Part shown: positions 1-36,092 of the stretch, piece by piece
How positions within the stretch are numbered: the first letter of the stretch is position 1
How the letters are laid out: every line of letters starts with the position of its first letter
From: an uncultured Methanosarcinales archaeon
Lineage (GTDB): Archaea > Nanobdellota > Nanobdellia > Woesearchaeales > CAYVYK01
Reading direction: 5' to 3'
Assembly: GCA_964455675.1 (NCBI GenBank)
Contig: CAYVYK010000014.1
Span: 1 to 38,571 of the forward strand
DNA length: 38,571 nt
Notes under the pieces: model-generated
The model's input: the letters and a program-made list of their open reading frames with translations, nothing else
Told to the model about the DNA's origin: nothing
The model's database searches: none
Program-made: the position numbers and the translations under genes

Positions 1-3000
1 CACCACGCTTGAGTTTTCTCCAAAGTCCGTGTCATTGTTGAAGTGCATCAGCACCTGCAGGTTTCTCGCAAGGTCTCCAAATCCCGGATCGAGTTCGCCA
101 TCGCTCGTCACCGCCCATCCGATGATTTGCGCGTTTGTCCTGTTATACCAGGAAACGTTTACCCCTCCAATGCCTTCTGTTCCATTTGTTGCGTTTACTT
201 CAACATACCATTTTCTTGTGAGTGTTGACGAAAGGAAGCTAGCGTTCTTGTACGTCGCGTTGATGAACGTGATGTTGTTGCTATTGGAAGCGTTAACGCT
301 GAATGCTTGCGAGTTGTTGATGTATTGGTCCACGAAAATATTGTGGTGACTTGTGTCAAAAGAGATACCATTTTGTACGGTGTGGTTGATTCTGTTGTTG
401 TAGAGGCGGTTCCTGCTGGCGTATATGAGCCATATGCATCCGTAATATTGTGTGGGTGATGTGCAGTTGTGGATGATATTGTTTGCGATGAGATTGTTCG
501 TGTTGCTGTATATGTAGATACCCATGGATGCGTTGTCGATACTGTTGTTTGCGATCGTTGAAAAATTTGATGACCAACTGAGTGTGATTGCTGTGCCTGA
601 TGTATCGATGATATTGTTGTTACTGATCGTTGTATTCTTGGAGTAAGTTACGGCAATTCCTTGATGTGATAAGTCATTATGGACGATGGTAGAATTTGAT
701 GAAGTTGTGAGTACGATCCCATTGCCACTATAGGCAACGCCAGTTCGTGGGATACTGAGTGTGTTATTGTAAATGCGCGTGAATTGAGACTGGCTCGCCG
801 AGATTCCTGCCGATGCCCTGACTGTATTGTTCCTGATTGTCAGGTTCTTGCCGCCTACTACCGCCACAGCGTACCCGGTGTCACTTAGCTTGTTTTGTAG
901 GACAGAGTTGTTGCGGGTATTGAAAAGATAGATATGGTATCCATAATCGGGGATTCCCGCGTAGAAAACGGACGCGTTTGCGATAATGTTGTTCTTGATG
1001 GTGCTTGTGTTTGTGCTTGGAAGGTAGAGGATGTACGCACCCGAAAGTCCATCGATGTTGATGTTCGTGATTCCCGCGAGATTCTTCATCGTGTTGCGGG
1101 TTATCGTGATATTCCTTCCGTACTCGATGATGGCGCCATATTTGATTTTGCAGGAGTCTCCTTCAAGGTCGCACGAAAAGTTACTGAAGTCATGGTTGCT
1201 GATGTTATTCCTGTCGATCGTGGTGTTCCTTCCGCTGTAGACTCTGAGTTGGTATCCATCGAGTGAGTTGTTCGAATTCATCCACCATGTGTTGTTGTAG
1301 TACAGGTTGTCCTTGCACTCGTAGTCCAGCGTTCCGTTCGCGTTCTTCGTGATGCTGTTGTTCGCGATGATGGAATAATTGCTCGCGAGGATGTATATTC
1401 CCTTCTTAAGTGTCCTGTTCACGCGGTTGTCATCAATCGTGAGGTTGTTCGTTCGTACGGCGTAGATTCCTACAGTGGTGCTTCGTGTAACGGTATTATT
1501 GATGATCTTGCTCTTGAGTGATCGGTCGATGGATATCCCGTAGCTTCCGTTCATGACGAAGTTATGGCTTACGGTTGTATTTGGGGTGATGCTAACACTT
1601 ATGGTCGAGCTGATTGCTGTCTGGTTGAGCGTGTTGTGAATGAGAGTAATACTGCGTCCATAGGACGTGGACAGTGCAGAGGTTGTATTACGTATGGTGT
1701 TATGGTCTGCCTTCGTCTGTGAGCTTTCGGCAATGAATACCCCCAAGAATCCAGCTCCGATCGTGTTATTGTATACTCTGCTGCGGTTTGATTTTGAGAG
1801 GTATATTGCGGCAATACCACCACTATCATACACCCTTATACTGTGCCCGCTGATCGTGGTATTTTTCTGGTCGCTATAGATTCCATATCCGGCAGGAGCG
1901 TAAATGGAATACCCTGCTCCTTTGAATGTAATGTTTTCCGCTTGTATTCTGAAGCAGTAGCCTGATCCAGAATAGTTGATGTTCTTCTTGAGCACGTACG
2001 TTCTGTCCGCGATGGTAAGGTTCGTGCAGTTGTACACATTCGTGATGTTGGTCGCTTTGTAGTCCGAGAATCCGGTGACGTTGAACCTGAAGTATCCGGT
2101 GGAGAAGCTGATGTTCTTGCATTCTTTGCAGTCGCTGTATCCTCCGTTCATGATCCGGTCGACGATTGCTTTGGGATAGATCCATCCGGTGCCCACCTTG
2201 AGGGTTACGTTCGCTCGCTCTGATGTAAACCCAGGATCAAGCGTGGTGTTGACGCGTGCCCGATTCGTGCTGAACTGTATCGTTTTTGAGAGGTTGCTTC
2301 CGTTGACTTTAAGGCTTGTGAGGAAGTGGATAGTTCCGAGTGCCGATGTGATCTTGAGCGTTCCGGAATCGATCCTGTATTTCACGACGCTGTTGTTGTA
2401 GATATAATAATCTGCGATGTCGCTTCCGCTGACGGTGTTGTTCGTGACGTTGTGGAAGGTGCCGCCGATCACGTGGATTCCATATGTGGAGCTGTCAGTG
2501 ATCGTGTTGTTTTTTATTCTGCAATAACTAGTGCCCTCCTTGATCAGGATGCCGGTAGCGGCCATGTCGATCGTGTTGTTTGCGATCTTCACTTTGGCTG
2601 AGCTGATGTTTATTGCGGTTCCAGCTCTGTTCATGTTGAAGATGTTTTTTGAAACGGTAATGTTTGATCCTCCTGTTGAGTAGAATCCAGACCTGGTGCT
2701 TCCGTTTGACGTGATGTTTGAGTTTCGTAGGGTGGTTCCTTCTCCTTCGTTGTAGATGGCATCCACGCTCTTGTTGAACGTGATGTTGCATCGATCGATG
2801 AGGGTATTGTAGCACAGTGATGCAATGTAGATCGCGTTTTGTGCTGTTGTCGGCGAATTGAACCTGTTCCTCGTGATATAGTTGGCGTTGCTCGTGGTGG
2901 TGATATAGATATGGGATAGTATGTTGCTAAAGAAATCATTGTTGATGATGCTTGTGCCTTTGCTCGAGGCTAAATAGACTCCGTAGTTATTGTTCTTGAT

Positions 3001-6000
3001 AGTGTTGTCCTGGATCTTGACGTACGCGGTGCTCGCAAGGTTTATTCCTTGGGTCGCTGTTGTGTCATAGATCGTGCAGTTCGTGATCGTTCCTGTCTTG
3101 AGGTTCGTGAGGTAGATGGCAGCTCCGCCTGTCCCGCCTTGGGCGAAGCAGTTTGAGATGTTGACTTGTGATGCTGATATCGATATTCCAGTGCCTGCGG
3201 CTTGCAGTATTGATACGTTCACTCCACGGATTTTTGTTCCGTTTGATGCTGATGCGACATAAATTCCTGCCGTTACTGAGTTAATTATCGTTCCTCCCTT
3301 GATCGTCGTGTTGCGCGCTGCTGAGACATAGACGCCGTACGTTCCTGCATTGATGTAGTTGTTCGATACGTTGTTTCGGTGCTCGCTTGTGCTGATATAC
3401 ACGCCGGAGTTTGCGATGCCTGTCAGGGTGTTGTTCCTGATATAGTTATCCGTTGATGATCCTGGAAAATATACCCCGTGGTACGCTGCCTGGACTTTAT
3501 TGTTGCTGAAGTTGCTCGCGTCACCATTATTCATCTCTATTCCGTATCCTCCGGTAGAGGTGCTCGTCGTGATGTCGCAGTTTTTTACCGTGATGTTTTG
3601 GACATTGAGTCCGTAGACTCCTGTATCAGTTTCTCCCGGTGCGTAGATGTACACTCCGTCGATCACGTTTCCGGAGGATGACATGTAGATTTGGTCTGCG
3701 GTGCTGTTGTACATCCTTCCTCCCTGGACGTAGTTATTGATTCCTTGCAGCAGCACGCCGTATGTGGCGAGTCGTGCCGTGTTGTTGATGAACTGGTTGT
3801 TCTTTCCGGATGTTTGGAACGCGTTCCCTGATCGGAGTATGGTGTTGTTGGTAACGACGCTGTTGTTTGATGCTGATAGTGATATTCCGTTCGTTGTTGC
3901 GTTTCGTATCGTGTTGTTGCGGATAGTATTGAGGCGGCTTATTGTGCTGAGGATGCCGGTGTGCGTTGATGCGTGGAAGCTGCTGTTCTTGATCTCGTTG
4001 TTTGACCCTCTGTAGATGTACACTCCGTACGCGCCGTGGTATGTTGTGATGTTATGGATGCGGCTGTAATTGGAGTTGTTGATGTACACTGCCCAGTTTG
4101 TGCACGATGCGCATGCTCTGTTGATCTTGCAGTTCTTGATCGTTGCGTTGTTGACATTGATGTAGACGCCTGCCTTGCCGGTATCATCTGATGTAATCCA
4201 ATGCCCGTGACAGTCGAGTGTGATGTTTGCCGCGCTGATGTTGATGCAGTGGCTCGATAGGGCGTTGTTCGTGATGTCTGCCGTCACCGTGTAGCTCGTG
4301 AGCGCTGTAGTGAGCGGCCTGCACGTGCTGACCGACGTACCTGTTTCCACCTTAATCTGTCGTACTTCTGTCTGGTTTTTGTTCCCGAACGAGTCAGCGC
4401 TGTGTCCTTGGACGTTGTATGTTTTGTCCGGGAGGTTCCTGTATGTTGCATGGTATTGATAGCGTGACGCGTTGTAGAGTGATAGTACTTCCGCAGCGCT
4501 GAGGCTTCTGTTGAATATGATGACTTCATCGATGCTTCCGTTGAAGTCATTCGTATGGTATTCGTATGTCCCCCTTCCGATAAGGAGTCGATATGTGGTT
4601 GCGGAGATGTTTCCCGTTGCGGCTCCGGCGTATTGCTGGCTGCCATTGAGATACCCGGTGAGTTGTGTTCCATTGTATGTCATGACGACGTGGCACCACT
4701 GCCCGACTGGGCATGTTCCTGTAGTCTCTGGATGGTAAGTCGTTGTTGTCGTTGTAAGGACAAGTTCTGCCTGATTTCTGATCGCTGCTCCTCCAAAGTC
4801 AATGCGATAAACCCCTTTTGATATCATGTATTGCGATGCTGTTGGCATTTTGTTGAGTTTTGCCCAGAGGGAGATTGTCATCGAGCTTCCGACGAGATCA
4901 AGCGCGTCCGTGTCGTTGATGGCAACGTAGCTGCTCGTGTTGAACGTGAATGCGTCTCCGAATTTTCCAGAGTTCGTCTGGTTCGCCCAACCTTTCTTTG
5001 TTCCGTTGTGGCGGTAGCCGCTGAGGTCCGTGGGGTTTCCGTACGCGTCAACGTCGTCCATCCTCATCCAGAGCACGACATCGTTGTTCAGTCGTGCGAA
5101 CGTATAGTGTAGCGAGGATTCCGTGGTGGAAATGTTGACGTTCAGGGTGCTCGTGGATATTCCGGTGTTGTTTCCAGGTGTCGGGGCTACAAATGAGATC
5201 TTTGGTCCTATCGTGTCCAGTCCGAACTTCATGAACACGTAGTCCGTGTAGAGTGAATGGTGGATGAGTGGCGGTGAGTGCTCGGTGAAGTATCCGCGCG
5301 CGGCAAACTCAAGGTCGTCATACCCTGTTGCGTTGAAGATAACTTCGTATTCTTCTCCTGGCTGTATGGCGAGATAGTCGTTGTCCTGCCAGATGAGTGG
5401 CCGGACGTTTCCGTCCGTGACACGTACTGGCAGATTGATCGTTCCAGCTGCGTTCAGCATGTGGAGTGATCGCGCGTTCATGAGGCGTGCAGATAATCCT
5501 TTGGTATCTCCTGTAAAGTATGTGGCGAGTGGCTCATGTTGGTAGGCAAGGAGTTGCGCAAGATTCTGCAGGGTGTTTGGCTGCATGTATGATCCCATGT
5601 CCGAGAATTCCAGTCGTGGCATCAGGTCCGTGTTTCGGGATGCTTCCCTTGTGAGGTTTTTCACGTCGTCTTCTCCAAGGATGAGCATGCTCGCGACGTC
5701 CCCTGCTTCTGTCAGCCCGATGCTCGCGAGGTCTTCACGCGCGGCATGCATGCGTGCGTTGAGCGTTTCCATGCGGACGGATAGCGGCTTTGGCGTTCCG
5801 ATGAGGATGAGGAAGTGTGTTTGCCGCTGGTTGTATGTCCATACTGTGGTATGCGGATACTCTGCGGCAAAGCTTGCGATGAGTGTGCGTAGGTCCGCGA
5901 ATGACAGTCCTCCGATCGGCACCCATGCTGCCGCGATTCCGTCCGGTGTGAGCCGTTCTTTCATGGTATGGAAGTAGTCTTGGCTGTACAAACTTGGGTT

Positions 6001-9000
6001 TCCTTTGTATTTGAGGTTCGTAACATCTGTGACGATGACATCATACTGTTTTGGCGTTGTCTGGAAATAGTGCCTCGCGTCGTCAATGATGAGGGTAAAC
6101 TTTGGATTGGAGAGCGTGTCTTTGCCTAGGTCTGGAAAGAACGCGCTTGCCCTTACAACTGCTTCCTCGATCTCGATGGCATCCACACTTACGCCGTGCG
6201 TAAGCATGCTCTGGCTCGTTCCCCCTGTTCCATATCCGACGGTTGCGACGCTCTCTGGCCGCGCGGATAGGAGGAGTGGTAGGTGCGCGAGCATTTTTGC
6301 GTCGATCACGAGTTCTTCGTCCGACCGTGCGACGGTTTGACTGTCGATGTTGAGTTTCCGCTCTGTTGTTCCGCGGTGCATGAACTCGCTCACCGTGACT
6401 GTACCCGTGAGTCCTTCCTCGTAGAAGAGGATTCTTTCATGGTCCTTGTAGTAGTGGTTGCCCGCGGTTCCAGCGATGATTCCTGCGATGATCACGCAAA
6501 GTGCAATGGCGAGTGCTCCCGTGCGTAGCATGCGTGCCGTGGACAGGAGGACGTATCCTCCTGCGGCGATGATGAGGAATATCATGAGGACTGTTGTGTT
6601 CTTGATGCCAAGGGTTGTGGTGAGCACAAATCCTGTGATGATGCTGCCCGTGATCATGCCTAGCGTGTTTGCGAGGTACGCCTTCCCGCTTTTTTGCCCT
6701 ATTGCGTCTTTCTCTTGTGCGTAGAGTTCGAGTGCGAGCGGGAACATGATCCCCATGAGTATTGCCGGGATGTATGCGAGTGCAAAACCGATGAGTGATG
6801 CGGTGATCACTCCGTCTGTTGGAAGTATTGCGCCAAGCTGCGCGTAGACCTGGAGGAGGACTGCGCTTAGGATTGCGAGCGCAAGCGCTGCCGTGCCAAA
6901 CACGAGTGCAGGTTTCTGTATCTTGCTTCGCGATAGGAGTGCACTTCCGCTCATCATGCCTAGGAGCATTCCAGCGAGGATGAGTGTGTACGAGAGTGTT
7001 GTTGTGAGGCCGTAGCTTGAGAGTGTTCGTGTCCAGAGGAGTTCAAGGCTGATGCTTGTCATTCCGGTGATGAAGAGCACACCAAGCATGTCCTTCCTCG
7101 TTCTGGTTTTTTGTTCAACCACTGTCGGTCCTGCAGCGCTTGGCATTCCTCGCGCGACGAGGAAAATGAGGATATTGATCGCGACTGCGATCCCAAGTGT
7201 TAGTGTGATGCCAAGGAACCTGATGAGGATGATGCCCGTGAGCAGCGACCCTGCGAATGCGCCAAGCGTGTTGACATAATATATTCGTGAGAACTCCCGG
7301 ACGTTTTGCCTGACAACATATTTTGTGATGATTGGGATAGTCCCTCCGATGCAGATGCATGGTATGAGAATGATTATCCCGCTGATCGCCATTCTGATGA
7401 TTGTGAGGAGTGCGAAGCTGCTCGTTGCGGCCTGTGCGTAGAATCGCTCAAACGGCCAGATGCTGATAACAAGGTACGACAGCGCTGAACTGATGCCTAT
7501 CGCAAGTTCGATGAACGCGTATGTTTTCAGGGTGTTCGGGCTTCGCTCTGTTATTTTTCCAAAGATGTAGCTGCCGAGCCCCAGGCCGAGCATGAATACT
7601 GCAATCACGGTCGCTACTGCGGCGCTGCTTGTCCCAAACTGGAGCGACAGTAGTCGTATCCACAGGAGCTGGTAGATGAGTGCTGCTCCTCCTGAGAGGA
7701 AGATGAGGTAGTGTATTCGCGGTATTGCAGCGAGCGCGTCCATCCCTTTGTGTCGAACAACGAATACGCATAGGATGATGAGTACGATGATGGCAAGGAT
7801 AATAAACTCTGTTGGGAAAGATGTTTCTTCCCTCACGGTTGCCTTGAGATAGACTTGGTCGATGTATGCTGTCTCGTTGAGCTCTTCTTTGAGCATGATT
7901 CTGATCGTTCCGTTCACGACGTCCACTGAGTCTGTGATATCAACGAATGATGTGTATTCCTGTTCTTTGCTTCCTGCTCCCGCGATGAAGTCTGAGATGA
8001 AGGAGTAAAGTCCGTCCTTGTAGGTATAGAGGAATGGTGAGTACTGGCATGCGCACTGCCGTGCTGTCCCTCGTGCGTACGTTGCGCAGTCGTTTTGCCC
8101 GTCCTGGTGGTAATAGCATGTCCCGCCGGTTGTCGCGCTTGCGTATGGTCCTGTCGCAGCTTGTCCTGAGCATCCATATGTCATATACCAGTGATTGCAT
8201 GTCGCACAATTGACAGGATCGTTCGTCCAGTCGCATGTTCCGTCCTGTACTCCACCGTGCGTGGCGCACAGGGCGGTGCACGATGACGTTGAGCTGTACC
8301 AGCAGTAGTTCGTGTTCCACCATCCCCCGCATGCCTTCTGGCTCGCGACGCGCATAGCGACTGTTTTTGTTGTTTGGTTGATGTAGTCCTGGACGTTGCT
8401 CGTTACGATGACGTTAATGGTTTGATCCGAACCTATTGGGTTGCCATACACTGATACCCATTTCCTTGCCGCGTAGCTGTAGAGGCTGATATTTGTATAG
8501 AATCCATTTGACGTTTCTCCGTACCCCTCCCACGTGATGTTGATGCTTCCTGGTGTACTGACGAGTGGATCGCGCGTGAGGTTGAAGATGAAGAGGTGCT
8601 GGTCATAATCGTACGCACCTGCTTTATAGGTGACAAAGTAGTCATTGTCGCTTTTATTGAGCTGTTTCATCGTTGTTCCGTTCACTGCGCTCCAGCCCGC
8701 CCAAGGGCTTGGATTCAGTGTTGTTGCTGCGTAGTACCCGCTCATGTTCGCGATCGTATAGTTGCTTGGGTCGACGATGTAGTCAAAGCGCAGGCTTCCT
8801 CCAAGGACGTGGAGATCGAATGTGTCTTCTTCTCCTGCGAGGTCGTTAAGATATCTCGTGTTCCTGCTATTGTTCGTTATGTTGTCAAAGCTTACGATGA
8901 CGTCAGTTCCGTTGTTCTGGTACACGTAGATGCTTGGGCTTCCGTTCATGATCCATGGATAGAGTGTGATGTCATTCACTGCCGTGAGGTTTTTCTTGAA

Positions 9001-12000
9001 TTCCACGCGCACGTAGTGTCCGGAAGGTATTGTCTCGCTCCACACATCATCAAGTGCGCTCACTTCAGGATAGATGTCTGAGACGAGTTCTCTGTTTTCG
9101 TCAAGGTGCGACGCCCTGCTGATCTCGATGATGATCTGGTATGTTTGGTTTGAGAGGTGTGGCACGACCCAGGTGATGGTGTCTCCCTTGCCGTTCAAAT
9201 CAGTGTCTGCGATCGAGAAGTCGAGCACTTCAAGGCGGTATTGTGGTTGCTCGGGTGTGCTGATGTCCTCGATGCTGCCGTAGCCGTTGGGAATGTCCAG
9301 ATTATCCGCGCTCTGTCCTTCGGTAAGAAGGTATTTGTATTCAATATCATCAATGATCCAGTAGAGCCGTGCTTGTGACTCGATGGGGAGTGCCGCGCTT
9401 ACCGTCACCTCATCGTATTCAACGTCGGAATGGACGACTACTTCCTTCTGGGTGGTGCTGACTGCTTCCTCAACAATTTCGGGTCCTGGGGTTGTGTACT
9501 CAAGTTCAACTTCTTCATAGATGCCTGGCACGAGGACGTAATTCTCTTCTGGCTCGGCGACTGCCGGATCGGACACGGCGTATCCGGTGATTCCTCCCGT
9601 GAGCCATCGCGTAATCCACTTGAGCATGCGTGTGATAATGCCTTCTCCTTCAGCGCTGTTCACGGCAAATGCTGTTATTCCTGGCGTGGTTCGCTCGGCA
9701 AGTTCTGGGTCGATCTTGGCGAGGAGTGCTTCTTTTGTTCGCAGACTACGTTCTGCCCGGACGAGCCGGTGTTTGATTTTTTTGCCGGTCTGTGCATCGC
9801 TCGAGGCAAGATCTTCCTGCGCCTGCGCGATTTCCTCTCGGAGTTCTTGGATTTTTTCCTCTATGTCCGCGGCTCGCAGAGTTCGTTGTGGCTTGTTGCG
9901 GTTTTCTTCTCTTTGCTGGAGGAATCTGGCAAGCCGTTGCGTTGCGAGTATTTCGTCGTTGACTGCCGCGGGTGTAGCCTCAGGTGTTGGTTCTGCCATT
10001 TCCTCATTGTTATCCTCCGGTGTCTGCTCAATCGTGGATTCCGTTGGTGCTTTAGTCTCTTCTTCATCGAGCTGTTCTTCCATCTCGATGATGGTGACAT
10101 CTGCGGTGTCAAGGACGGCTATCTCCTCTGGTGGTGGTACATTCGTTTCAGACGGGACATCTGGAATCTCCGTGGGAATGTTGATTGGGTTCTCTGTTGG
10201 CGATGGGTTTGCAAGTGGAGTCTCGGTTGGGCTTTCAGTAGATGTTGGAGTGGCCGTGATCTCAGGTATTATCGGCTCGTCGAGTAAGCTATCAGCAAGT
10301 TTGATCTCGCGTCCTTCTTGTTCGAGGTATGCTTCTGTGATGGGTTCTGAGTTTGCCCGCACCCGGATGTCATACGCGCTCTTGGGTATGGGTATTCTGG
10401 TCGTGTCTGCCGCGTTTGCGACCCGTATCCTCCTAACCCACGTCGTTGGTTTCCCCACTTGGATTTGAGTGGTGTTCGTGAGGAGGACGGTGACTGTTTC
10501 GCTGAGGTTTTCGGTAATATTGCTCGTGATATTAGACGTGATATTCGTCGTGATATTGGTAGTAATGTTTGTAGTAATGTTTATGGTGATGTTCGTAAGG
10601 TTGAGGGAAAGGTTGCTCGTGTAATTCAGGCTAAGATTACCCGTAATGTTCGCGGTGATATTGCTCGTAATATTTGTGGTTATATTGCCCGTAATATTCA
10701 TGCTGATATTGTTGGTAATATTGGCTGTTATGTTTGATGTGATATTCGTCGTAGTGTTCGTATCTGTCGTGACGTTTGATGTGATGTTCATGGATATGTT
10801 GGTGGTGATATCGCTCGTGATGTTGCTCGTTACGTTTAATGTCGTATTCGTGATGTTTGTGCTATCGTTCGTATCAGGGATTTCTGGGAGTACAACGAGT
10901 GTTGCGTCCGTTGAATTCGTTGCGAGTTCGTCCGATGCATAGAACGTGATGCTCGCGTTTCCAAAAAAGCCTGCGCTAGTTATGGTAACGATACTGTTGA
11001 GTATTCCAACATTCATCCCTTCAGGTTGCGTGACAAGGTATGTGATATTGTCCCCATCCTCATCGTATGCGTACGAGGCAAGGTCCACAATGGTTTCACC
11101 GCTGATCGTGATCGGTGGAACAGGCAGCCATTTTGGTGCGCGGTTGCCTTGGGCGAGTGTGTAACTGATACCTGTGATCGTGATGCTGCTTCCCTCTTCA
11201 GTTTCGACGACGAGTGAGTATGGTCCTGCGGTGTGTACATGACAGCTCTCTGCGCAGTGGCTGGCAAATTCCAGTTCTTCCGGCGCTGCTTCATCGGCGG
11301 TATCATCCGGTTCTGGTGTTTCTTCAGGTGTTGGTTGGATTGTCGCTTCTGGTGTTTCGGCGGGTACTGGTGTCTCTGCTGGTGTTTCTTCCGGTGTTGG
11401 TTCTGGTGTCTCTTCGATCGATTCTTCTGGTTCTTCGAGGGTGTCGTCGACCTCTTCATCCGGTGTTGGTTCTGGTGTTTCTTCAGGTGATTCCTCAAGG
11501 GTGTCGTCAGTTTCATCTGTTGGGGTTTCTTCTTGTGTTGGTTCTGGTGTTTCTTCGATCCATTCTTCTGGTTCTTCATCTGTATCACTGGTTTCTTCCG
11601 GTGTCTCTTCGGGTGTTGGCGTCGCGCCTTTCTTTGTCTTTTTTGGTTTGACGGAGAGGAGTTGTACCGTGACGTCCGTGCTGTTCGTGCCGTCCTTGTC
11701 GCTTGCGTAGATCGTGATCGTTCGGTTGCCGCTCATGTTGTTTGGATTGCGTAGGCGCAGTCTGTTATAGAGGACGTCTACGTCAAGATCTTCTGCGCTC
11801 GTCGCAACGTACGTAATTTCGTCATGGTCTCGGTCGCGCCAGTACTTGGAGAGATTGATGGTCTTGTCTACGCCGTATTTTACTTTGATGAGGGGGAATT
11901 TCCTGAATCTTGGTGGTCGTGGTGGTTTGCTGTGGACGGCTAGCCCTGTGAGTCCTTCGATTCCTTCCTCTTCTGTTAGCATGCTTGTGTCAAGGATGAG

Positions 12001-12252
12001 TGTTTGTCCTTCCGCGTGCTTGAGGTACACACGTGCTTCTCCGCTGTATGTTCCGCTAATGCGCATGCTTGCAAGTTCTCCGCTGATAGCGAGCGCTTGC
12101 TCTCCTGCAGAGTCAAACGTGTACGTGACGTCCTGCGTATGGATTTCTTCGCTGATCGCGAGTCCCACGAGTTCTGGGCCGCTGTGGTAGAGTACCGCGA
12201 TGAACATTCCGACGAGGAGTCCGAGGATAAGGTAGCTCGGGAGTCTACGCAT
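1..12252 (-). CDS. Giant multidomain cell-surface/membrane protein (>=4084 aa, 3' end beyond the window): signal anchor, acidic linkers, NxT array, internal MFS-like/spermidine-synthase-like module, LamG and right-handed beta-helix (PbH1/NosD-like) domains
   Basis: Manual translation from ATG 12252 (MRRLPSYLILGLLVGMFIAVLY...) stays in one frame to base 1 (...LQVLMHFNNDTDFGENSSVV). The ORF track lists no minus-strand ORF in this frame across 1-12252, as expected for a frame with no stop inside the window. A purine-rich RBS-like stretch precedes the ATG, which overlaps the upstream gene's stop (ATGCGTAG). Confidence 0.93.
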   Translation of the reverse strand, partial: MRRLPSYLILGLLVGMFIAVLYHSGPELVGLAISEEIHTQDVTYTFDSAGEQALAISGELASMRISGTYSGEARVYLKHAEGQTLILDTSMLTEEEGIEGLTGLAVHSKPPRPPRFRKFPLIKVKYGVDKTINLSKYWRDRDHDEITYVATSAEDLDVDVLYNRLRLRNPNNMSGNRTITIYASDKDGTNSTDVTVQLLSVKPKKTKKGATPTPEETPEETSDTDEEPEEWIEETPEPTQEETPTDETDDTLEESPEETPEPTPDEEVDDTLEEPEESIEETPEPTPEETPAETPVPAETPEATIQPTPEETPEPDDTADEAAPEELEFASHCAESCHVHTAGPYSLVVETEEGSSITITGISYTLAQGNRAPKWLPVPPITISGETIVDLASYAYDEDGDNITYLVTQPEGMNVGILNSIVTITSAGFFGNASITFYASDELATNSTDATLVVLPEIPDTNDSTNITNTTLNVTSNITSDITTNISMNITSNVTTDTNTTTNITSNITANITNNISMNITGNITTNITSNITANITGNLSLNYTSNLSLNLTNITINITTNITTNITTNITSNITSNITENLSETVTVLLTNTTQIQVGKPTTWVRRIRVANAADTTRIPIPKSAYDIRVRANSEPITEAYLEQEGREIKLADSLLDEPIIPEITATPTSTESPTETPLANPSPTENPINIPTEIPDVPSETNVPPPEEIAVLDTADVTIIEMEEQLDEEETKAPTESTIEQTPEDNNEEMAEPTPEATPAAVNDEILATQRLARFLQQREENRNKPQRTLRAADIEEKIQELREEIAQAQEDLASSDAQTGKKIKHRLVRAERSLRTKEALLAKIDPELAERTTPGITAFAVNSAEGEGIITRMLKWITRWLTGGITGYAVSDPAVAEPEENYVLVPGIYEEVELEYTTPGPEIVEEAVSTTQKEVVVHSDVEYDEVTVSAALPIESQARLYWIIDDIEYKYLLTEGQSADNLDIPNGYGSIEDISTPEQPQYRLEVLDFSIADTDLNGKGDTITWVVPHLSNQTYQIIIEISRASHLDENRELVSDIYPEVSALDDVWSETIPSGHYVRVEFKKNLTAVNDITLYPWIMNGSPSIYVYQNNGTDVIVSFDNITNNSRNTRYLNDLAGEEDTFDLHVLGGSLRFDYIVDPSNYTIANMSGYYAATTLNPSPWAGWSAVNGTTMKQLNKSDNDYFVTYKAGAYDYDQHLFIFNLTRDPLVSTPGSINITWEGYGETSNGFYTNISLYSYAARKWVSVYGNPIGSDQTINVIVTSNVQDYINQTTKTVAMRVASQKACGGWWNTNYCWYSSTSSCTALCATHGGVQDGTCDWTNDPVNCATCNHWYMTYGCSGQAATGPYASATTGGTCYYHQDGQNDCATYARGTARQCACQYSPFLYTYKDGLYSFISDFIAGAGSKEQEYTSFVDITDSVDVVNGTIRIMLKEELNETAYIDQVYLKATVREETSFPTEFIILAIIVLIILCVFVVRHKGMDALAAIPRIHYLIFLSGGAALIYQLLWIRLLSLQFGTSSAAVATVIAVFMLGLGLGSYIFGKITERSPNTLKTYAFIELAIGISSALSYLVISIWPFERFYAQAATSSFALLTIIRMAISGIIILIPCICIGGTIPIITKYVVRQNVREFSRIYYVNTLGAFAGSLLTGIILIRFLGITLTLGIAVAINILIFLVARGMPSAAGPTVVEQKTRTRKDMLGVLFITGMTSISLELLWTRTLSSYGLTTTLSYTLILAGMLLGMMSGSALLSRSKIQKPALVFGTAALALAILSAVLLQVYAQLGAILPTDGVITASLIGFALAYIPAILMGIMFPLALELYAQEKDAIGQKSGKAYLANTLGMITGSIITGFVLTTTLGIKNTTVLMIFLIIAAGGYVLLSTARMLRTGALAIALCVIIAGIIAGTAGNHYYKDHERILFYEEGLTGTVTVSEFMHRGTTERKLNIDSQTVARSDEELVIDAKMLAHLPLLLSARPESVATVGYGTGGTSQSMLTHGVSVDAIEIEEAVVRASAFFPDLGKDTLSNPKFTLIIDDARHYFQTTPKQYDVIVTDVTNLKYKGNPSLYSQDYFHTMKERLTPDGIAAAWVPIGGLSFADLRTLIASFAAEYPHTTVWTYNQRQTHFLILIGTPKPLSVRMETLNARMHAAREDLASIGLTEAGDVASMLILGEDDVKNLTREASRNTDLMPRLEFSDMGSYMQPNTLQNLAQLLAYQHEPLATYFTGDTKGLSARLMNARSLHMLNAAGTINLPVRVTDGNVRPLIWQDNDYLAIQPGEEYEVIFNATGYDDLEFAARGYFTEHSPPLIHHSLYTDYVFMKFGLDTIGPKISFVAPTPGNNTGISTSTLNVNISTTESSLHYTFARLNNDVVLWMRMDDVDAYGNPTDLSGYRHNGTKKGWANQTNSGKFGDAFTFNTSSYVAINDTDALDLVGSSMTISLWAKLNKMPTASQYMISKGVYRIDFGGAAIRNQAELVLTTTTTTYHPETTGTCPVGQWCHVVMTYNGTQLTGYLNGSQQYAGAATGNISATTYRLLIGRGTYEYHTNDFNGSIDEVIIFNRSLSAAEVLSLYNASRYQYHATYRNLPDKTYNVQGHSADSFGNKNQTEVRQIKVETGTSVSTCRPLTTALTSYTVTADITNNALSSHCINISAANITLDCHGHWITSDDTGKAGVYINVNNATIKNCKINRACASCTNWAVYINNSNYSRIHNITTYHGAYGVYIYRGSNNEIKNSSFHASTHTGILSTISRLNTIRNNTIRNATTNGISLSASNNSVVTNNTILRSGNAFQTSGKNNQFINNTARLATYGVLLQGINNYVQGGRMYNSTADQIYMSSSGNVIDGVYIYAPGETDTGVYGLNVQNITVKNCDITTSTSTGGYGIEMNNGDASNFSNNKVQAAYHGVYFPGSSTDNYIRNNTLTGIANSGVYISTSEHRNNVSNNYINAGTYGVYVSAARNTTIKGGTIINSVTAGIYVASASNGTKIRGVNVSILQAAGTGISISASQVNISNCFAQGGTGGAAIYLTNLKTGTITNCTIYDTTATQGINLASTAYVKIQDNTIKNNNYGVYLASSKGTSIINNDFFSNILSHIYITTTSNANYITRNRFNSPTTAQNAIYIASLCYNTLIDRCNITFNKSVDAIYNEGEGTTLRNSNITSNGSTRSGFYSTGGSNITVSKNIFNMNRAGTAINISSAKVKIANNTIDMAATGILIKEGTSYCRIKNNTITDSSTYGIHVIGGTFHNVTNNTVSGSDIADYYIYNNSVVKYRIDSGTLKITSALGTIHFLTSLKVNGSNLSKTIQFSTNRARVNTTLDPGFTSERANVTLKVGTGWIYPKAIVDRIMNGGYSDCKECKNISFSTGYFRFNVTGFSDYKATNITNVYNCTNLTIADRTYVLKKNINYSGSGYCFRIQAENITFKGAGYSIYAPAGYGIYSDQKNTTISGHSIRVYDSGGIAAIYLSKSNRSRVYNNTIGAGFLGVFIAESSQTKADHNTIRNTTSALSTSYGRSITLIHNTLNQTAISSTISVSITPNTTVSHNFVMNGSYGISIDRSLKSKIINNTVTRSTTVGIYAVRTNNLTIDDNRVNRTLKKGIYILASNYSIIANNSITKNANGTLDYECKDNLYYNNTWWMNSNNSLDGYQLRVYSGRNTTIDRNNISNHDFSNFSCDLEGDSCKIKYGAIIEYGRNITITRNTMKNLAGITNINIDGLSGAYILYLPSTNTSTIKNNIIANASVFYAGIPDYGYHIYLFNTRNNSVLQNKLSDTGYAVAVVGGKNLTIRNNTVRASAGISASQSQFTRIYNNTLSIPRTGVAYSGNGIVLTTSSNSTIVHNDLSHQGIAVTYSKNTTISNNNIIDTSGTAITLSWSSNFSTIANNSIDNASMGIYIYSNTNNLIANNIIHNCTSPTQYYGCIWLIYASRNRLYNNRINHTVQNGISFDTSHHNIFVDQYINNSQAFSVNASNSNNITFINATYKNASFLSSTLTRKWYVEVNATNGTEGIGGVNVSWYNRTNAQIIGWAVTSDGELDPGFGDLARNLQVLMHFNNDTDFGENSSVV
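250..4320 (-). other. Two right-handed parallel beta-helix regions of the giant protein (approx. 4320-2400 and 2040-250), separated by a small domain ending FNVTGFSDY
   Basis: Recurrent Asn-ladder units such as YGVYI..SNNEIKN, GISLSASNSVVTNNTI and YGVYLASSKGTSIINN. Each helix opens with a typical cap (HCINISAANITLDCHG; YCFRIQAENITFKG). Confidence 0.85.
4470..5090 (-). other. LamG/concanavalin-A-like jellyroll domain of the giant protein; a second one appears to begin at 60-1
   Basis: LWMRMDD...DLSGYRHNGT...GKFGDAFTF...MTISLWAK...WCHVVMTYNG...YLNG...FNGSIDEVIIFNRSLSAAEV. Confidence 0.9.
5600..7809 (-). other. Internal polytopic membrane (MFS-like) plus spermidine-synthase-fold (class I SAM-binding) module of the giant protein
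   Basis: About 14 hydrophobic segments with family-typical repeats (FLSGGAALIYQLLWIRLL / FITGMTSISLELLWTRTL; LYVNTLGAFAGS / AYLANTLGMITGS). These are followed by LAHLPLLL, VGYGTGGT, AIEIEEAVV, IDDARHYF, YDVIVTD, LYSQDYF and LTPDGIAAAW. Confidence 0.9.
10501..10870 (-). repeat. Coding ~12-bp degenerate tandem repeat giving an (x-N-I-T)n array of N-glycosylation sequons
   Basis: Translates as ...TNITSNITANITNNISMNITGNITTNITSNITANITGNLSLNYTSNLSLNLTNITINITTNITTNITTNITSNITSNITENLS; about 30 N-x-S/T sequons in about 123 aa. Confidence 0.9.
11280..11625 (-). repeat. Coding low-complexity Glu/Thr/Pro-rich repeat linker (EETPEPTP); a second acidic linker lies at approx. 9960-10290
   Basis: Repeated + strand words ggttctggtgtttcttc; translation EETPEPTQEETP...EETPEPTPDEE...EETPEPTPEETP. 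Confidence 0.85.
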
Positions 12253-12736
12253 GCGTTTCCCCCCGTTTCTCGCTCGCTCGGTGCCACACTGTCCAGATTG
12301 TTCGGTCATCTCTGTGGAGTATTTTTCCGATTTTGGTGAACGTGTATCCTTGGCGCTCTTTGAGATCATAGACGATGGATTCCAGGATTGTGAGTCGTTC
12401 ATCTGTGAATGCTTCCATGGGGATGCTGTGTGCAAAGCTGATGTCAGAAAACTGTTCGGGTTGTTTTCGCGCAGCATTGCGGTACGTGATCCAGATGGTG
12501 CTCGTGTCGCGGTGCAGCAACCCCACAACTTCCTTGTTGCTCTTCTCTCGATTCTCGCGTAGATACTTCACGATTGCTTCAAAGCAGCTGAGTTTTCTAA
12601 TGAAGATGGAGCATGGCACGGCGTCCCTGCTTTTTCCCTCGAGGATATGGGTGATATCAGAATCCGTATAGTGGTAGACGTCCTTCAGGTGATGGATGAG
12701 CCGTTCGAGCTGTTTCGCCGTGCCTTCCTCTGCCAA
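12245..12736 (-). CDS. Duplicated helix-turn-helix putative transcriptional regulator, translationally coupled to the giant gene
   Basis: Two ~50-aa internal repeats: LSCFEAIVKYLRE...KEVVGLLHRDTSTIWITYRNA and LTILESIVYDLKE...TKIGKILHRDDRTIWTVWHRA. TTG start. The stop overlaps the giant gene's ATG by 8 bp. Confidence 0.8.
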   Translation of the reverse strand: MAEEGTAKQLERLIHHLKDVYHYTDSDITHILEGKSRDAVPCSIFIRKLSCFEAIVKYLRENREKSNKEVVGLLHRDTSTIWITYRNAARKQPEQFSDISFAHSIPMEAFTDERLTILESIVYDLKERQGYTFTKIGKILHRDDRTIWTVWHRASEKRGETHA

Positions 12737-15067: not shown

Positions 15068-15176
15068 TAACCCCTCCTACCGAATCACTCTATATATAGT
15101 TTGTCCCTATACAAAATATCCAACTACCCCAGACGTTCAATCACACAAAAAAAGAGAGCGATCACAGATTCAATCC

Positions 15177-15466
15177 CGCAAAGCCATCATTCAAGCGAAG
15201 CTTGAAGATGGCGTCCGTGACCGGGCGACCAACGGGAGCCCGACTGTCCTACGATGATATGATGAAAGTTCCTAATTCTGTAGTGAATAGTCCATCAGAA
15301 GCCCGACCGTCNNNNNNNNNNNNNNNNNNNNNNNNNNNNNNNNNNNNNNNNNNNNNNNNNNNNNNNNNNNNNNNNNNNNNNNNNNNNNNNNNNNNNNNNN
15401 NNNNNNNNNNNATATGATGAAAGTTCCTAATTCTGTAGTGAATAGTCCATCAGAAGCCCGACCGTC
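15177..15466 (+). repeat. Structured repeat element copy 1: 79-nt hairpin head plus ~63-bp tandem unit, interrupted by a 100-N scaffold gap
   Basis: Head aligns ungapped with 35718-35796 (66/79 identical). GCCCGACYGTC recurs at 15238 and 15301. An identical 55-mer flanks both sides of the gap. Confidence 0.8.
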
Positions 15467-25113: not shown

Positions 25114-25315
25114 TTTATGCCGTAAGCATGGATGCCTATCTGTTCGCTTGATGGCATGAACTCAGAGGTTGTGATCCAAGCGTCCAAAGTCGTCATGTTC
25201 CAGGATCGTGCAGGGAACAGGGCTTGCCGTCAGGCCGCAATATTTTTTTTTAGTTTTTACAGGCAAGCCTCGCAATAATAAGGGTGGTGGTCCAAATAGC
25301 GCTTATGGAATCAGT

Positions 25316-26065
25316 CTAGAACTTATTCAATACCGAATCTTTCTCAAGCACTTCAACGGCGTGGAGTGCATCTGTCACATTCAGCATCGTTTTCTCAAGG
25401 TTCGGTGCGTCGTCAAACCCGATCCGCGGGCATGCGGTATTCACCCATACCTTGATGAATGGGAAGTGCCCAAGATTATACAGATTGATTGTATCATCCA
25501 CGAAGAAGTAGAACGTTTTCGTCGGGTATGCCTTTTCAAGTATGAGTGCCGCATTGAGTTGCTGCTGTCCTGGTTTTAAGGTCACAAGTACTCCGATCTC
25601 ATCAAACTTCAGGAAGTTCTTGAGCGCGATGTGGTACTTGTGGAGGATTGTTCCTATCTCATCAATTCCAATGAGTCGGGTCCTCTGTTCGGGGGGGCTG
25701 TACACGAGCACGTCCCGCACAAGGCTTGGATGCAGGTCTTTTTGCGCAAGGAGTAGCGCCCGAGGGTGAAACATGCCATCGCCGATATAGAGATAGAGGT
25801 CGGGTATCTCGGCGATGTTGAGCGCGGAGTGGTACGCATCGCAGCCGAGTAATTGGGATTGTGCGGACGCTCGCGCTGGTTTTGACGTTATTACTTGGAT
25901 GTTCTCGGTGGCGAGCTGCCTCTCAATGATTGAGAGTCTGTCGATGAATTGCACGGATGAGTAGAGAGCGATTTTCCGAACATTCAGCCTATGGAGTATC
26001 TGCACGGCTTCCGCGGACAGTTTCACATCACCCGTGTATGGCGCCGTGAACCGGACAACTTTCAT
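25316..26065 (-). CDS. dph2: Diphthamide synthesis protein Dph2, C-terminal two domains (split gene; alternative start 26071)
   Basis: SSVQF, QLLGCD, YIGDGMFHP, KPGQ and NTACPRI motifs. The ATG at 26065 overlaps the upstream stop (ATGA). Confidence 0.88.
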   Translation of the reverse strand: MKVVRFTAPYTGDVKLSAEAVQILHRLNVRKIALYSSVQFIDRLSIIERQLATENIQVITSKPARASAQSQLLGCDAYHSALNIAEIPDLYLYIGDGMFHPRALLLAQKDLHPSLVRDVLVYSPPEQRTRLIGIDEIGTILHKYHIALKNFLKFDEIGVLVTLKPGQQQLNAALILEKAYPTKTFYFFVDDTINLYNLGHFPFIKVWVNTACPRIGFDDAPNLEKTMLNVTDALHAVEVLEKDSVLNKF

Positions 26066-26340
26066 GCCCATCCCTCTTTGCGGATGAACTCATTATGCCC
26101 GTATGTCACCAGAAGATCGACGTTCAGCGCTTTTAGGCCTAGCGGCAGGTCGCACGCTCCAAAGTCCGTGCCAAGCCATATGAGCACGAGCGGCGGATTC
26201 TTTATTTCTCCGCGAATTGCATCAACAATCTCCCGGGCTCGCGGTTTGAGGCCGTCCGGTAGCTGGATGCACATGCGCTTTGGCTTTTCCTTTGCGATGA
26301 GCGAAATGAGTCTCTTGATTTCCATATCATAACTGGCCAT
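26062..26340 (-). CDS. dph2: Diphthamide synthesis protein Dph2, N-terminal domain (split gene)
   Basis: IQLPDGLK, FGACDLP and VTYGH are the N-terminal Dph2 motifs, including the first Fe-S Cys. Confidence 0.88.
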   Translation of the reverse strand: MASYDMEIKRLISLIAKEKPKRMCIQLPDGLKPRAREIVDAIRGEIKNPPLVLIWLGTDFGACDLPLGLKALNVDLLVTYGHNEFIRKEGWA

Positions 26341-26671
26341 AGAGGTACGTTATCCCCCTCCCTTTTAATATATTGTGGAGAGATGAGAGGTGTGGGATAC
26401 AGTGCAGACCGTCAATCGAGCAATTGCCCTCTTCCAAGAGCAAAGTTGTGGGCGGAAGAGGGCTCGCCGAAGGCTCACAATAATTTTTTTTAAACTTACC
26501 CTCATAGTAGGGAACTAAACCTCCTTGAATTTTATAATCAAAAAAACGCTAGACGATTTTTTTGAGTACAATCTGAACGCCTGACACGTGGAACTGATAG
26601 TCCTCCCCCGTGGACGTGTGTTGGCCTCATAGGGGAAACTTATTAAGTGTAGGGAACCTATTGATGTCCTG

Positions 26672-35665: not shown

Positions 35666-35717
35666 ATGGTCGCACGATCAATTACGCCTAGCAGAGCCAT
35701 CATGAAACCGCACGTCA

Positions 35718-36060
35718 CGCAAAGGCATCATTAAGGCATCGCCTTAAGATGCCGTCCGGTACCGGGCGACCGACGGGAGCCCGACCGTCCTACGATATTA
35801 TTCTGATGTTGTGTCGTGCTTCAGCGACCNNNNNNNNNNNNNNNNNNNNNNNNNNNNNNNNNNNNNNNNNNNNNNNNNNNNNNNNNNNNNNNNNNNNNNN
35901 NNNNNNNNNNNNNNNNNNNNNNNNNNNNNACCGTCCTACGATATTATTCTGATGTTGTGTCGTGCTTCAGCGACCGATGGGAGCCCGACCGTCCTACGAT
36001 ATTATTCTGATGTTGTGTCGTGCTTCAGCGACCGATGGGAGCGCGATCGTCCCGCGATAG
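35718..36060 (+). repeat. Structured repeat element copy 2: 79-nt hairpin head plus 58-bp tandem unit, interrupted by a 100-N scaffold gap
   Basis: Two contiguous 58-bp copies start at 35930 and 35988, and another precedes the gap. The head is homologous to 15177-15255. Confidence 0.88.
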
Positions 36061-36092
36061 TGTTATTCAAGAAAAAGAATAGACCATGCGAA

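Follow-up and report, generated by a model that had tools for sequence, protein, structure and literature searches.

The PATEs of Haloquadratum are described as protein-less derivatives of IS200/IS605 elements: short, gene-free, multi-copy and heterogeneous archaeal elements with near-terminal hairpins (PMC3119063). IS200/IS605 elements are reported to use the lagging-strand template as their substrate and to be oriented in line with replication (PMC5371812; PMC6006769). REP and BIME sequences are described as intergenic imperfect hairpins with local tandem amplification and locus-type linkers (PMC6006769; PMC3333891; PMC3733652), and BIME amplification has been modelled as a rolling-circle-like process (PMC3333891). 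The Rfam motif GA-cis (RF02987) has a hairpin with a cGAAg loop, a CCGAC-like linker and a second hairpin whose tandem G·A is topped by two pairs and a short loop, followed by TAC.

The DNA analysed here (the window) is the 38,571-nt contig C14 of a 1.72 Mb archaeal genome, which is rated 99% complete, encodes an archaeal cdc6/orc1 and belongs to an order containing small genomes. Positions 15177-15255 and 35718-35796 are copies of one gene-free, two-hairpin dispersed repeat. Realignment reproduced the ungapped 79-nt match with 13 differences described in an earlier sequence-only reading, and also its observation that the six substitutions in hairpin 1 form three two-sided (compensatory) changes, with a bulged A present in both copies. 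Of the other differences, the hairpin-1 loop (GAA/ATC) holds three, the TGA/GTA linker two, and the hairpin-2 loop and tail together two. On the plus strand, the folding z-scores of the two copies were -3.1 and -3.6 as RNA and -4.2 and -4.2 as DNA. Both copies were intergenic among ordinary genes, copy 1 lying antisense to genes for a cupin and a DHH/DHHA1 protein, and copy 2 after purD and facing a PEP-utiliser gene. The minus strand of the window also holds an open frame of more than 4000 aa at 1-12528, with 12-nt tandem repeats at 10489-10864.

The element extends beyond the flagged 79 nt, with all parts on the plus strand. In copy 1, a 5' unit was located at 15130-15157; such units have a period of about 28 nt and occur as one to three decaying copies before hairpin 1, with their motif at -50 from the hairpin foot here and at -22, -50 or -79 in other copies. 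Hairpin 1 (15183-15212) consists of 6 bp, the bulged A, 7 bp and a cGAAg triloop. It is followed by the linker GWCCG and four variable nucleotides (15213-15221), in which G57 and C59 were invariant in 28/28 copies and had no covarying partner. Hairpin 2 (15222-15242) is built from a covarying stem of 5 bp, then tandem G·A/A·G, a further 2 bp and a 3-nt loop. Column conservation defined an unpaired tail (ACYGTCC-TAC...ATNATGA, 15243-15265), and a decayed partial repeat of the 3' part (15290-15311), 63 nt past the head, is cut by an assembly gap. In copy 2, the 5' unit (35672-35702) runs into a copy of the hairpin-1 5' arm, hairpin 1 (35724-35753) has the loop ATC and is among the 8 of 30 copies without a GNA-type loop, and hairpin 2 (35763-35783) carries the tandem G·A. 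The tail and a locus-type spacer follow (35784-35829), the 58-nt unit beginning at the C of CGACC (35767), and near-identical 58-nt partial repeats continue past the gap (35930-36067), the final one decayed. Since both copies run into 100-N gaps (15312-15411 and 35830-35929), the number of tail repeats is not fixed for either. Positions 15412-15466 exactly repeat 15257-15311, a duplicate that may be a scaffolding overlap.

A profile search of the genome found 27 full and 3 partial heads, and a covariance model returned 30 full-length matches of 51-112 bits among 37 matches at E up to 1. The BLAST-type check for more copies that the first reading had proposed was thus answered by 30 copies in the genome, far beyond chance. 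Nearly all were intergenic (two overlap mechanically called ORFs), and head identity between copies was 0.58-0.97, with a median of 0.76. The copies were clustered regionally, in 15 bins versus 20 expected (p 0.003), with several contigs of more than 100 kb free of them. For the model, 28 of the 30 copies were aligned; one copy with a replaced hairpin 1 was left out, as was one whose hairpin 1 is interrupted across from the bulged A by 49 nt of AT-rich sequence inserted into the 3' arm (L123, C1:89802-89956). At another locus, two complete heads with identical hairpin 1 stand in tandem, 140 nt apart (L125, C2:141801-142046). Promoter and terminator scans with bacterial-type models were empty.

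This family, referred to as family A, behaves like PATEs or REP/BIME sequences but appears, on the features tested, to belong to neither, because no parent IS or RAYT, no GTAG foot and no inverted pairs were found. Like PATEs, it has imperfect subterminal hairpins, no terminal inverted repeats and no transposase gene; if the G/T-rich strand is the leading-strand sequence, its orientation would also be linked to replication, as in IS200/IS605 (PMC5371812). A right module (family C or A) can have a left one (family D or B) about 50-150 nt ahead of it. It differs from PATEs in that no parent IS, TnpA or TnpB was found in this genome, no target tetranucleotide was defined and most copies have no left module; moreover, two-sided polar partial tandem repeats are not described for PATEs in the available part of the source (PMC3119063). 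With REP/BIME sequences it shares intergenic imperfect hairpins and local tandem amplification with locus-type linkers; its minus strand often begins with GTAG, and its plus strand holds CGTC words. However, the units at a locus are all co-oriented and never form inverted pairs as in BIME/REPIN, GT[AG]G is not at the hairpin foot (CAAA/CAGA stands 5' of hairpin 1), no tnpA(REP)/RAYT locus was found, the strand bias is strong, and there are 30 copies rather than hundreds. On the minus strand, GTAG is found 6-7 nt away from hairpin 2 and is variable (TAC/TGC/TCC/CAC on the plus strand). On balance, the family probably represents a non-autonomous single-stranded DNA mobile repeat that folds on the lagging-strand template and is mobilised in trans by an enzyme of the HUH (Y1-type) kind, which was lost or is unassembled here.

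Across the 28 aligned copies, the two-hairpin fold was paired in 94.8% of cells compared with 80.1% in shuffles, hairpin 2 being scored as N4-C-GA-CC-nnn-GG-GA-G-N4'. Two-sided changes were found in 13 of 21 pairs, one of the 21 being a stray entry over a gap column; this count was reached by 0/500 shuffles, a result that is not a probability because the copies are related. The six pairs with the highest mutual information were all stem pairs of this fold, and RNAalifold recovered the same fold unaided. The structure proposed from two copies is therefore conserved at the family level in hairpin 1, which covaries strongly across the 28 copies (two-sided changes in 10/13 pairs). The second hairpin (GTCCG...CGGGC) and third stem (GAYGG...YYGTC) of that proposal did not survive, with two-sided changes in 0/10 pairs and pairing of 72.9% versus 72.8% in shuffles. 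The actual second hairpin is a covarying stem (pairs 68-86, 69-85 and 70-84) capped by an invariant tandem G·A, with GACC and GG invariant. Three pairs of the GAYGG...YYGTC stem remained G-C, A-T or G-T in 28/28 copies, and therefore this stem may be an alternative fold, for example in the partial repeats.

Template switching can alter both arms of a hairpin at once, so the copies might be neutral relics in which correction of quasi-palindromes produced the paired changes without selection on structure. Such correction could give two-sided changes, and the spread of head identity is compatible with decaying relics, but it would remove both the bulge and the G·A mismatches, positions that are among the best kept (bulged A in 26/28 copies, GACC in 28/28). 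Moreover, two copies with a wholly different hairpin-1 sequence still fold. The kept bulge and GACC speak against palindrome correction alone and in favour of an imperfect hairpin being recognised, and the neutral-relic explanation, already largely refuted by these imperfections, is highly improbable.

The hairpin-1 loops of the 30 copies comprised 11 triloops of the form cGNAg, in which N takes all four bases, and 11 tetraloops of the form cGNACg (cGAACg or cGCACg), giving 22/30 DNA-type loops and 0/30 GNRA or UNCG loops. Unusual stability in DNA is reported for a d(GNA) loop closed by C-G, and d(cGNABg) and d(cGNNAg) are given as stable DNA tetraloops (PMC3201870). The DNA-type loop motifs and the tandem G·A were present only on the plus strand, which is thus probably the folded one, as had been proposed. 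The reason first given for this, G-U wobbles, did not hold: the covarying stems contained four G-T versus six A-C mismatches, and so the wobbles cannot pick a strand. Computed folding energies likewise showed no preference for the plus strand (12/30 as DNA). Related loops are known in RNA as well, and the covariation fits RNA as well as DNA.

An Rfam scan of the window, a check that the first reading had proposed, gave no match at gathering score. The statement in that reading that the element could be matched to no known class was too strong, given the behaviour resembling PATEs and REP/BIME and the shape resembling GA-cis, which is the closest catalogue entry. One copy could be aligned to GA-cis along the whole 88 positions (29.1 bits, E 0.0015) and shares its succession of cGAAg-loop hairpin, CCGAC-like linker, tandem-G·A hairpin and TAC. 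It could be proposed from this that the family is a structured RNA akin to GA-cis, acting in cis on neighbouring genes or self-transcribed, and spread through an RNA step, and the downstream gene lay on the same strand in 20/30 cases (mechanical ORF calls). This is unlikely. GA-cis was silent on 19 of 20 copies, its sole match stayed under the 34.7-bit gathering threshold, and the motif differs in its bulge, in the archaeal host found here and in the tie of orientation to skew. Neither window copy is sense to and 5' of a gene, GNRA and UNCG loops are absent, no reverse transcriptase was found in the genome, and skew predicted orientation (28/30) better than genes did (20/30; for family C, 15 same versus 14 opposite). 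Searches for real GA-cis copies for comparison gave 0/5, 0/151 and 0/151 genomes, with no positive control responding, and none in the own genome. Between the two options first offered, a structured RNA or a single-stranded DNA element family, the non-autonomous single-stranded DNA mobile repeat is favoured over the non-coding RNA, because orientation tracks skew and not genes, the loops are of DNA type, and tails are common to distant loci.

Several other candidates were examined and rejected. A box C/D sRNA array would fit the C-box-like word that is present, but not a putative guide that is conserved or spacers that duplicate one another. A K-turn would have a 3-nt bulge, which is missing. 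A group II intron 3' remnant was considered on resemblance only, and Rfam gave no match. For a CRISPR-like or TnpB guide array, no effector was found and the spacers are related to each other. The single GIY-YIG match, considered as a partner, belongs to a 530-aa frame that is some 9 kb away from the closest copy and is tentatively taken to be UvrC.

Orientation analysis placed 28/30 copies on the strand richer in G across the 20 kb around them, the G/T-rich strand (binomial p 9e-7). When neighbours within 5 kb were merged, 23/25 clusters lay on the G-rich strand (p 2e-5). This polarity is not a gene effect, because ORFs of at least 120 aa numbered 690 on the G/T-rich and 676 on the C/A-rich strand. 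Contig overlaps connected contigs of consistent skew, and the rRNA genes were on the G-rich strand. Genome-wide, the G/T strand skew runs over whole contigs, with third-position GC skew up to 0.3, without gene-strand bias. The G-rich strand is generally reported to be the leading-strand sequence (10.1101/808410). From the skew, we infer that the G/T-rich strand is here the leading-strand sequence, in which case the folded strand would be the lagging-strand template, the substrate of IS200/IS605. No replication origin was placed: there was no clean skew switch within any contig, and none marked by cdc6. The cdc6/orc1 gene itself is at C1:172 kb, far from any skew switch.

Partial repeats of the 3' part were found at 21/30 loci (31 units, three of them weak), mostly 53-83 nt apart; window copy 2 was missed here owing to its gap. 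Their start is fixed and their end variable. The match of the repeats to the head was 0.06-0.10 at offsets -5 to -2 and 0.42-0.84 at offsets 0 to +3, a step at (C)GACC, which lay outside the search pattern used for repeat detection. Mean identity to the head was 0.79 for first units and 0.67 for second units. The fixed start could have been inherited from one old duplication or reflect polymerase stalling. On the opposite side of the head, a 14-nt motif 5' of hairpin 1, derived from the same loci that were scored, was at -22 in 13/29 loci and in 8 at -50, compared with an expectation of 0.03 per 80 nt. In five or six loci, including both off-strand copies, an extra hairpin module ending in CCCC..TTGTGGA was located 116-149 nt upstream.

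Three loci on two contigs have in common about 45 nt of upstream sequence with the 5' units, the head and a tail of about 60-100 nt, and then diverge; one of them has an extra head-proximal unit. Spacers are common to other distant loci too. Head and tail therefore travel together. No empty site or circle junction was seen over five copies in two DNA runs of one study, which represented the same population with 6 single-letter differences and in which all joints were explained by other copies; the case for mobility thus rests on comparisons within the genome. Neither a target tetranucleotide nor exact element ends could be fixed, the left end being blurred by the 28-nt repeats.

An unbiased word count of intergenic DNA revealed two further polar families. 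Family C had 31 matches, 30 of them on the G/T-rich strand, and consists of a long-loop hairpin, a mini-hairpin (cGAAg in 16/31, cGTCAg in 12/31), an AT-rich tail and partial 3' repeats that start at one point (8 units). Family D had 17 matches, 16 on the G/T-rich strand, and ends in a CCCC-TTSTGGA word, as does the upstream module of family A. It was located 34-54 nt before a family C copy in 13/17 cases and 24-111 nt after one in 5. The window contains a family C copy at 25191-25244 (plus strand, as the flagged element), with long-loop hairpin, cGTCAg mini-hairpin and AT-rich tail, and another with a cGAAg mini-hairpin at 26424-26485 (plus strand), after which a family D module begins 83 nt on, at 26567, on the same strand as the flagged element too. 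These two family C copies flank, on both sides, a diphthamide-synthesis gene that appears in two adjacent minus-strand frames (25316-26071 and 26062-26340; model positions 1-59 and 83-293). A 21-nt word from the upstream module of three family A loci also occurs in a hairpin insert behind a tRNA-Lys (L197, C2:38931-39160), which adjoins a family D copy, and the small repeats appear to nest in each other.

The layout of left module, right double hairpin and decaying tail thus occurs twice, with unrelated core sequences. A fairly unlikely reading of this is a new class of modular single-stranded DNA mobile repeats, with a left module, a double-hairpin right module and a self-extending array of partial repeats, which would be copied in a rolling-circle-like manner at the lagging strand by an enzyme not recognisable as an HUH protein, perhaps a host replication protein. 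If so, the D-C, C-D and C-D-C arrangements would be windows on a concatemer, and the GA-cis 'RNA' of Rfam would be a bacterial single-stranded DNA cousin. The strict polarity of the three families, the failure to find a transposase, and repeats that decay outward on both sides of the hairpins would also be expected of a multiplied host signal on the lagging-strand template (priming, restart or fork barrier), with repeats arising from polymerase stalling or slipping at the hairpins. We regard such a signal as quite unlikely: the spread is uneven, with copy-free contigs of more than 100 kb, the family was in 0/150 genomes of the order (no close relative among them), and tails were copied between loci.

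No Y1 transposase, RAYT, TnpB, Cas12f-type domain or reverse transcriptase was found in the 99% complete genome. No Y1 remnant was detected with a profile derived from 29 of the order's Y1 proteins (best E 2.2), and a crude HUH-motif scan of 90-330 aa ORFs yielded no candidate. Y1 genes were present in 103/301 genomes of the order, and the element model had no match beside 30 Y1 genes of relatives. Since multi-copy elements often drop out of metagenome bins, absence of the enzyme is not proven.

The genome does encode one tyrosine recombinase and one IS110/Nop-type protein, for which no link to the elements was found. The IS110/Nop-type protein has 576 aa and a Transposase_20 domain (E 2e-12; L229:838-2568, minus strand, corresponding to C5:86027-87757). 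On both sides of its gene, at about C5:85250-88420, are arrays of units of about 180 nt, with three GC-rich stems, each topped by a variable loop about 30 nt long; they look like a TIGR-Tas stem-loop guide array as portrayed in PMC12045711, but have three alternating stem types. Elsewhere, a pair of family A copies in the same orientation encloses two small genes, one of which gave a weak ParE-like Pfam match (E 0.007; L002:1500-2445), possibly a carried toxin-antitoxin-type cassette. Both enzymes, and this bracketed unit, could be cited for a folded single-stranded DNA recombination site served by another enzyme class, either a tyrosine recombinase (as for attC) or an IS110-like protein. Such a site has a slight probability, as no attC-type R-box pattern is visible, the copies stand beside housekeeping genes and not in cassette arrays, and the IS110-like gene has its own stem-loop arrays, of which 18 extracted loops shared no more words with the elements than shuffles did.

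The family was searched for elsewhere. Blastn of the element gave 0/40 relatives, the covariance model 0/150 genomes of the order (no close relative in the set), and the family C motif 0/400. Metagenomes gave 0 matches for two patterns and viral sequences 0 for four patterns, and plasmids and phages gave no match. In a contig scan with a loose pattern, none of the matches listed (at least 111 stretches) exceeded 20.3 bits with the family profile, so those listed are chance matches. No prior description of the family was found in the literature, a word search of 10.64898/2026.10.21.760802 was also empty, and no description of REP-like repeats in DPANN archaea was found in the literature searched.

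The family is thus a lineage-restricted, apparently replication-polarised hairpin repeat, found in one genome. Its 30 copies, covarying stems, kept bulge and tandem G·A, polarity, common tails and fixed repeat start are supported directly. For the favoured mobile repeat served by an HUH enzyme, the following mechanism is proposed. At the replication fork, the lagging-strand template would let the element form its single-stranded DNA fold, and an HUH-type nicking-joining enzyme acting in trans would bind the imperfect hairpins. Hairpin 2 would be nicked near its C|GACC step, leaving a 3'-OH that primes strand-displacing synthesis, and a second, loosely placed cut 55-80 nt downstream would join on one extra unit, as in the rolling-circle-like BIME model. 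Cutting and joining at a new fork would carry head and tail to a new intergenic site; transfer to new forks would also explain the regional clustering.

The interest of the family lies in its anatomy and its missing enzyme. The element offers a short, defined substrate with a predicted nick site, usable for finding that enzyme, and if this is not a known HUH protein, it would represent a novel route of single-stranded DNA mobility. Given the resemblance to GA-cis, it can be asked whether DNA hairpin repeats are hidden among the 'orphan RNA motifs' of the catalogues. Three families with near-total strand polarity would provide a direct marker of replication direction in a genome where cdc6 marks no origin.
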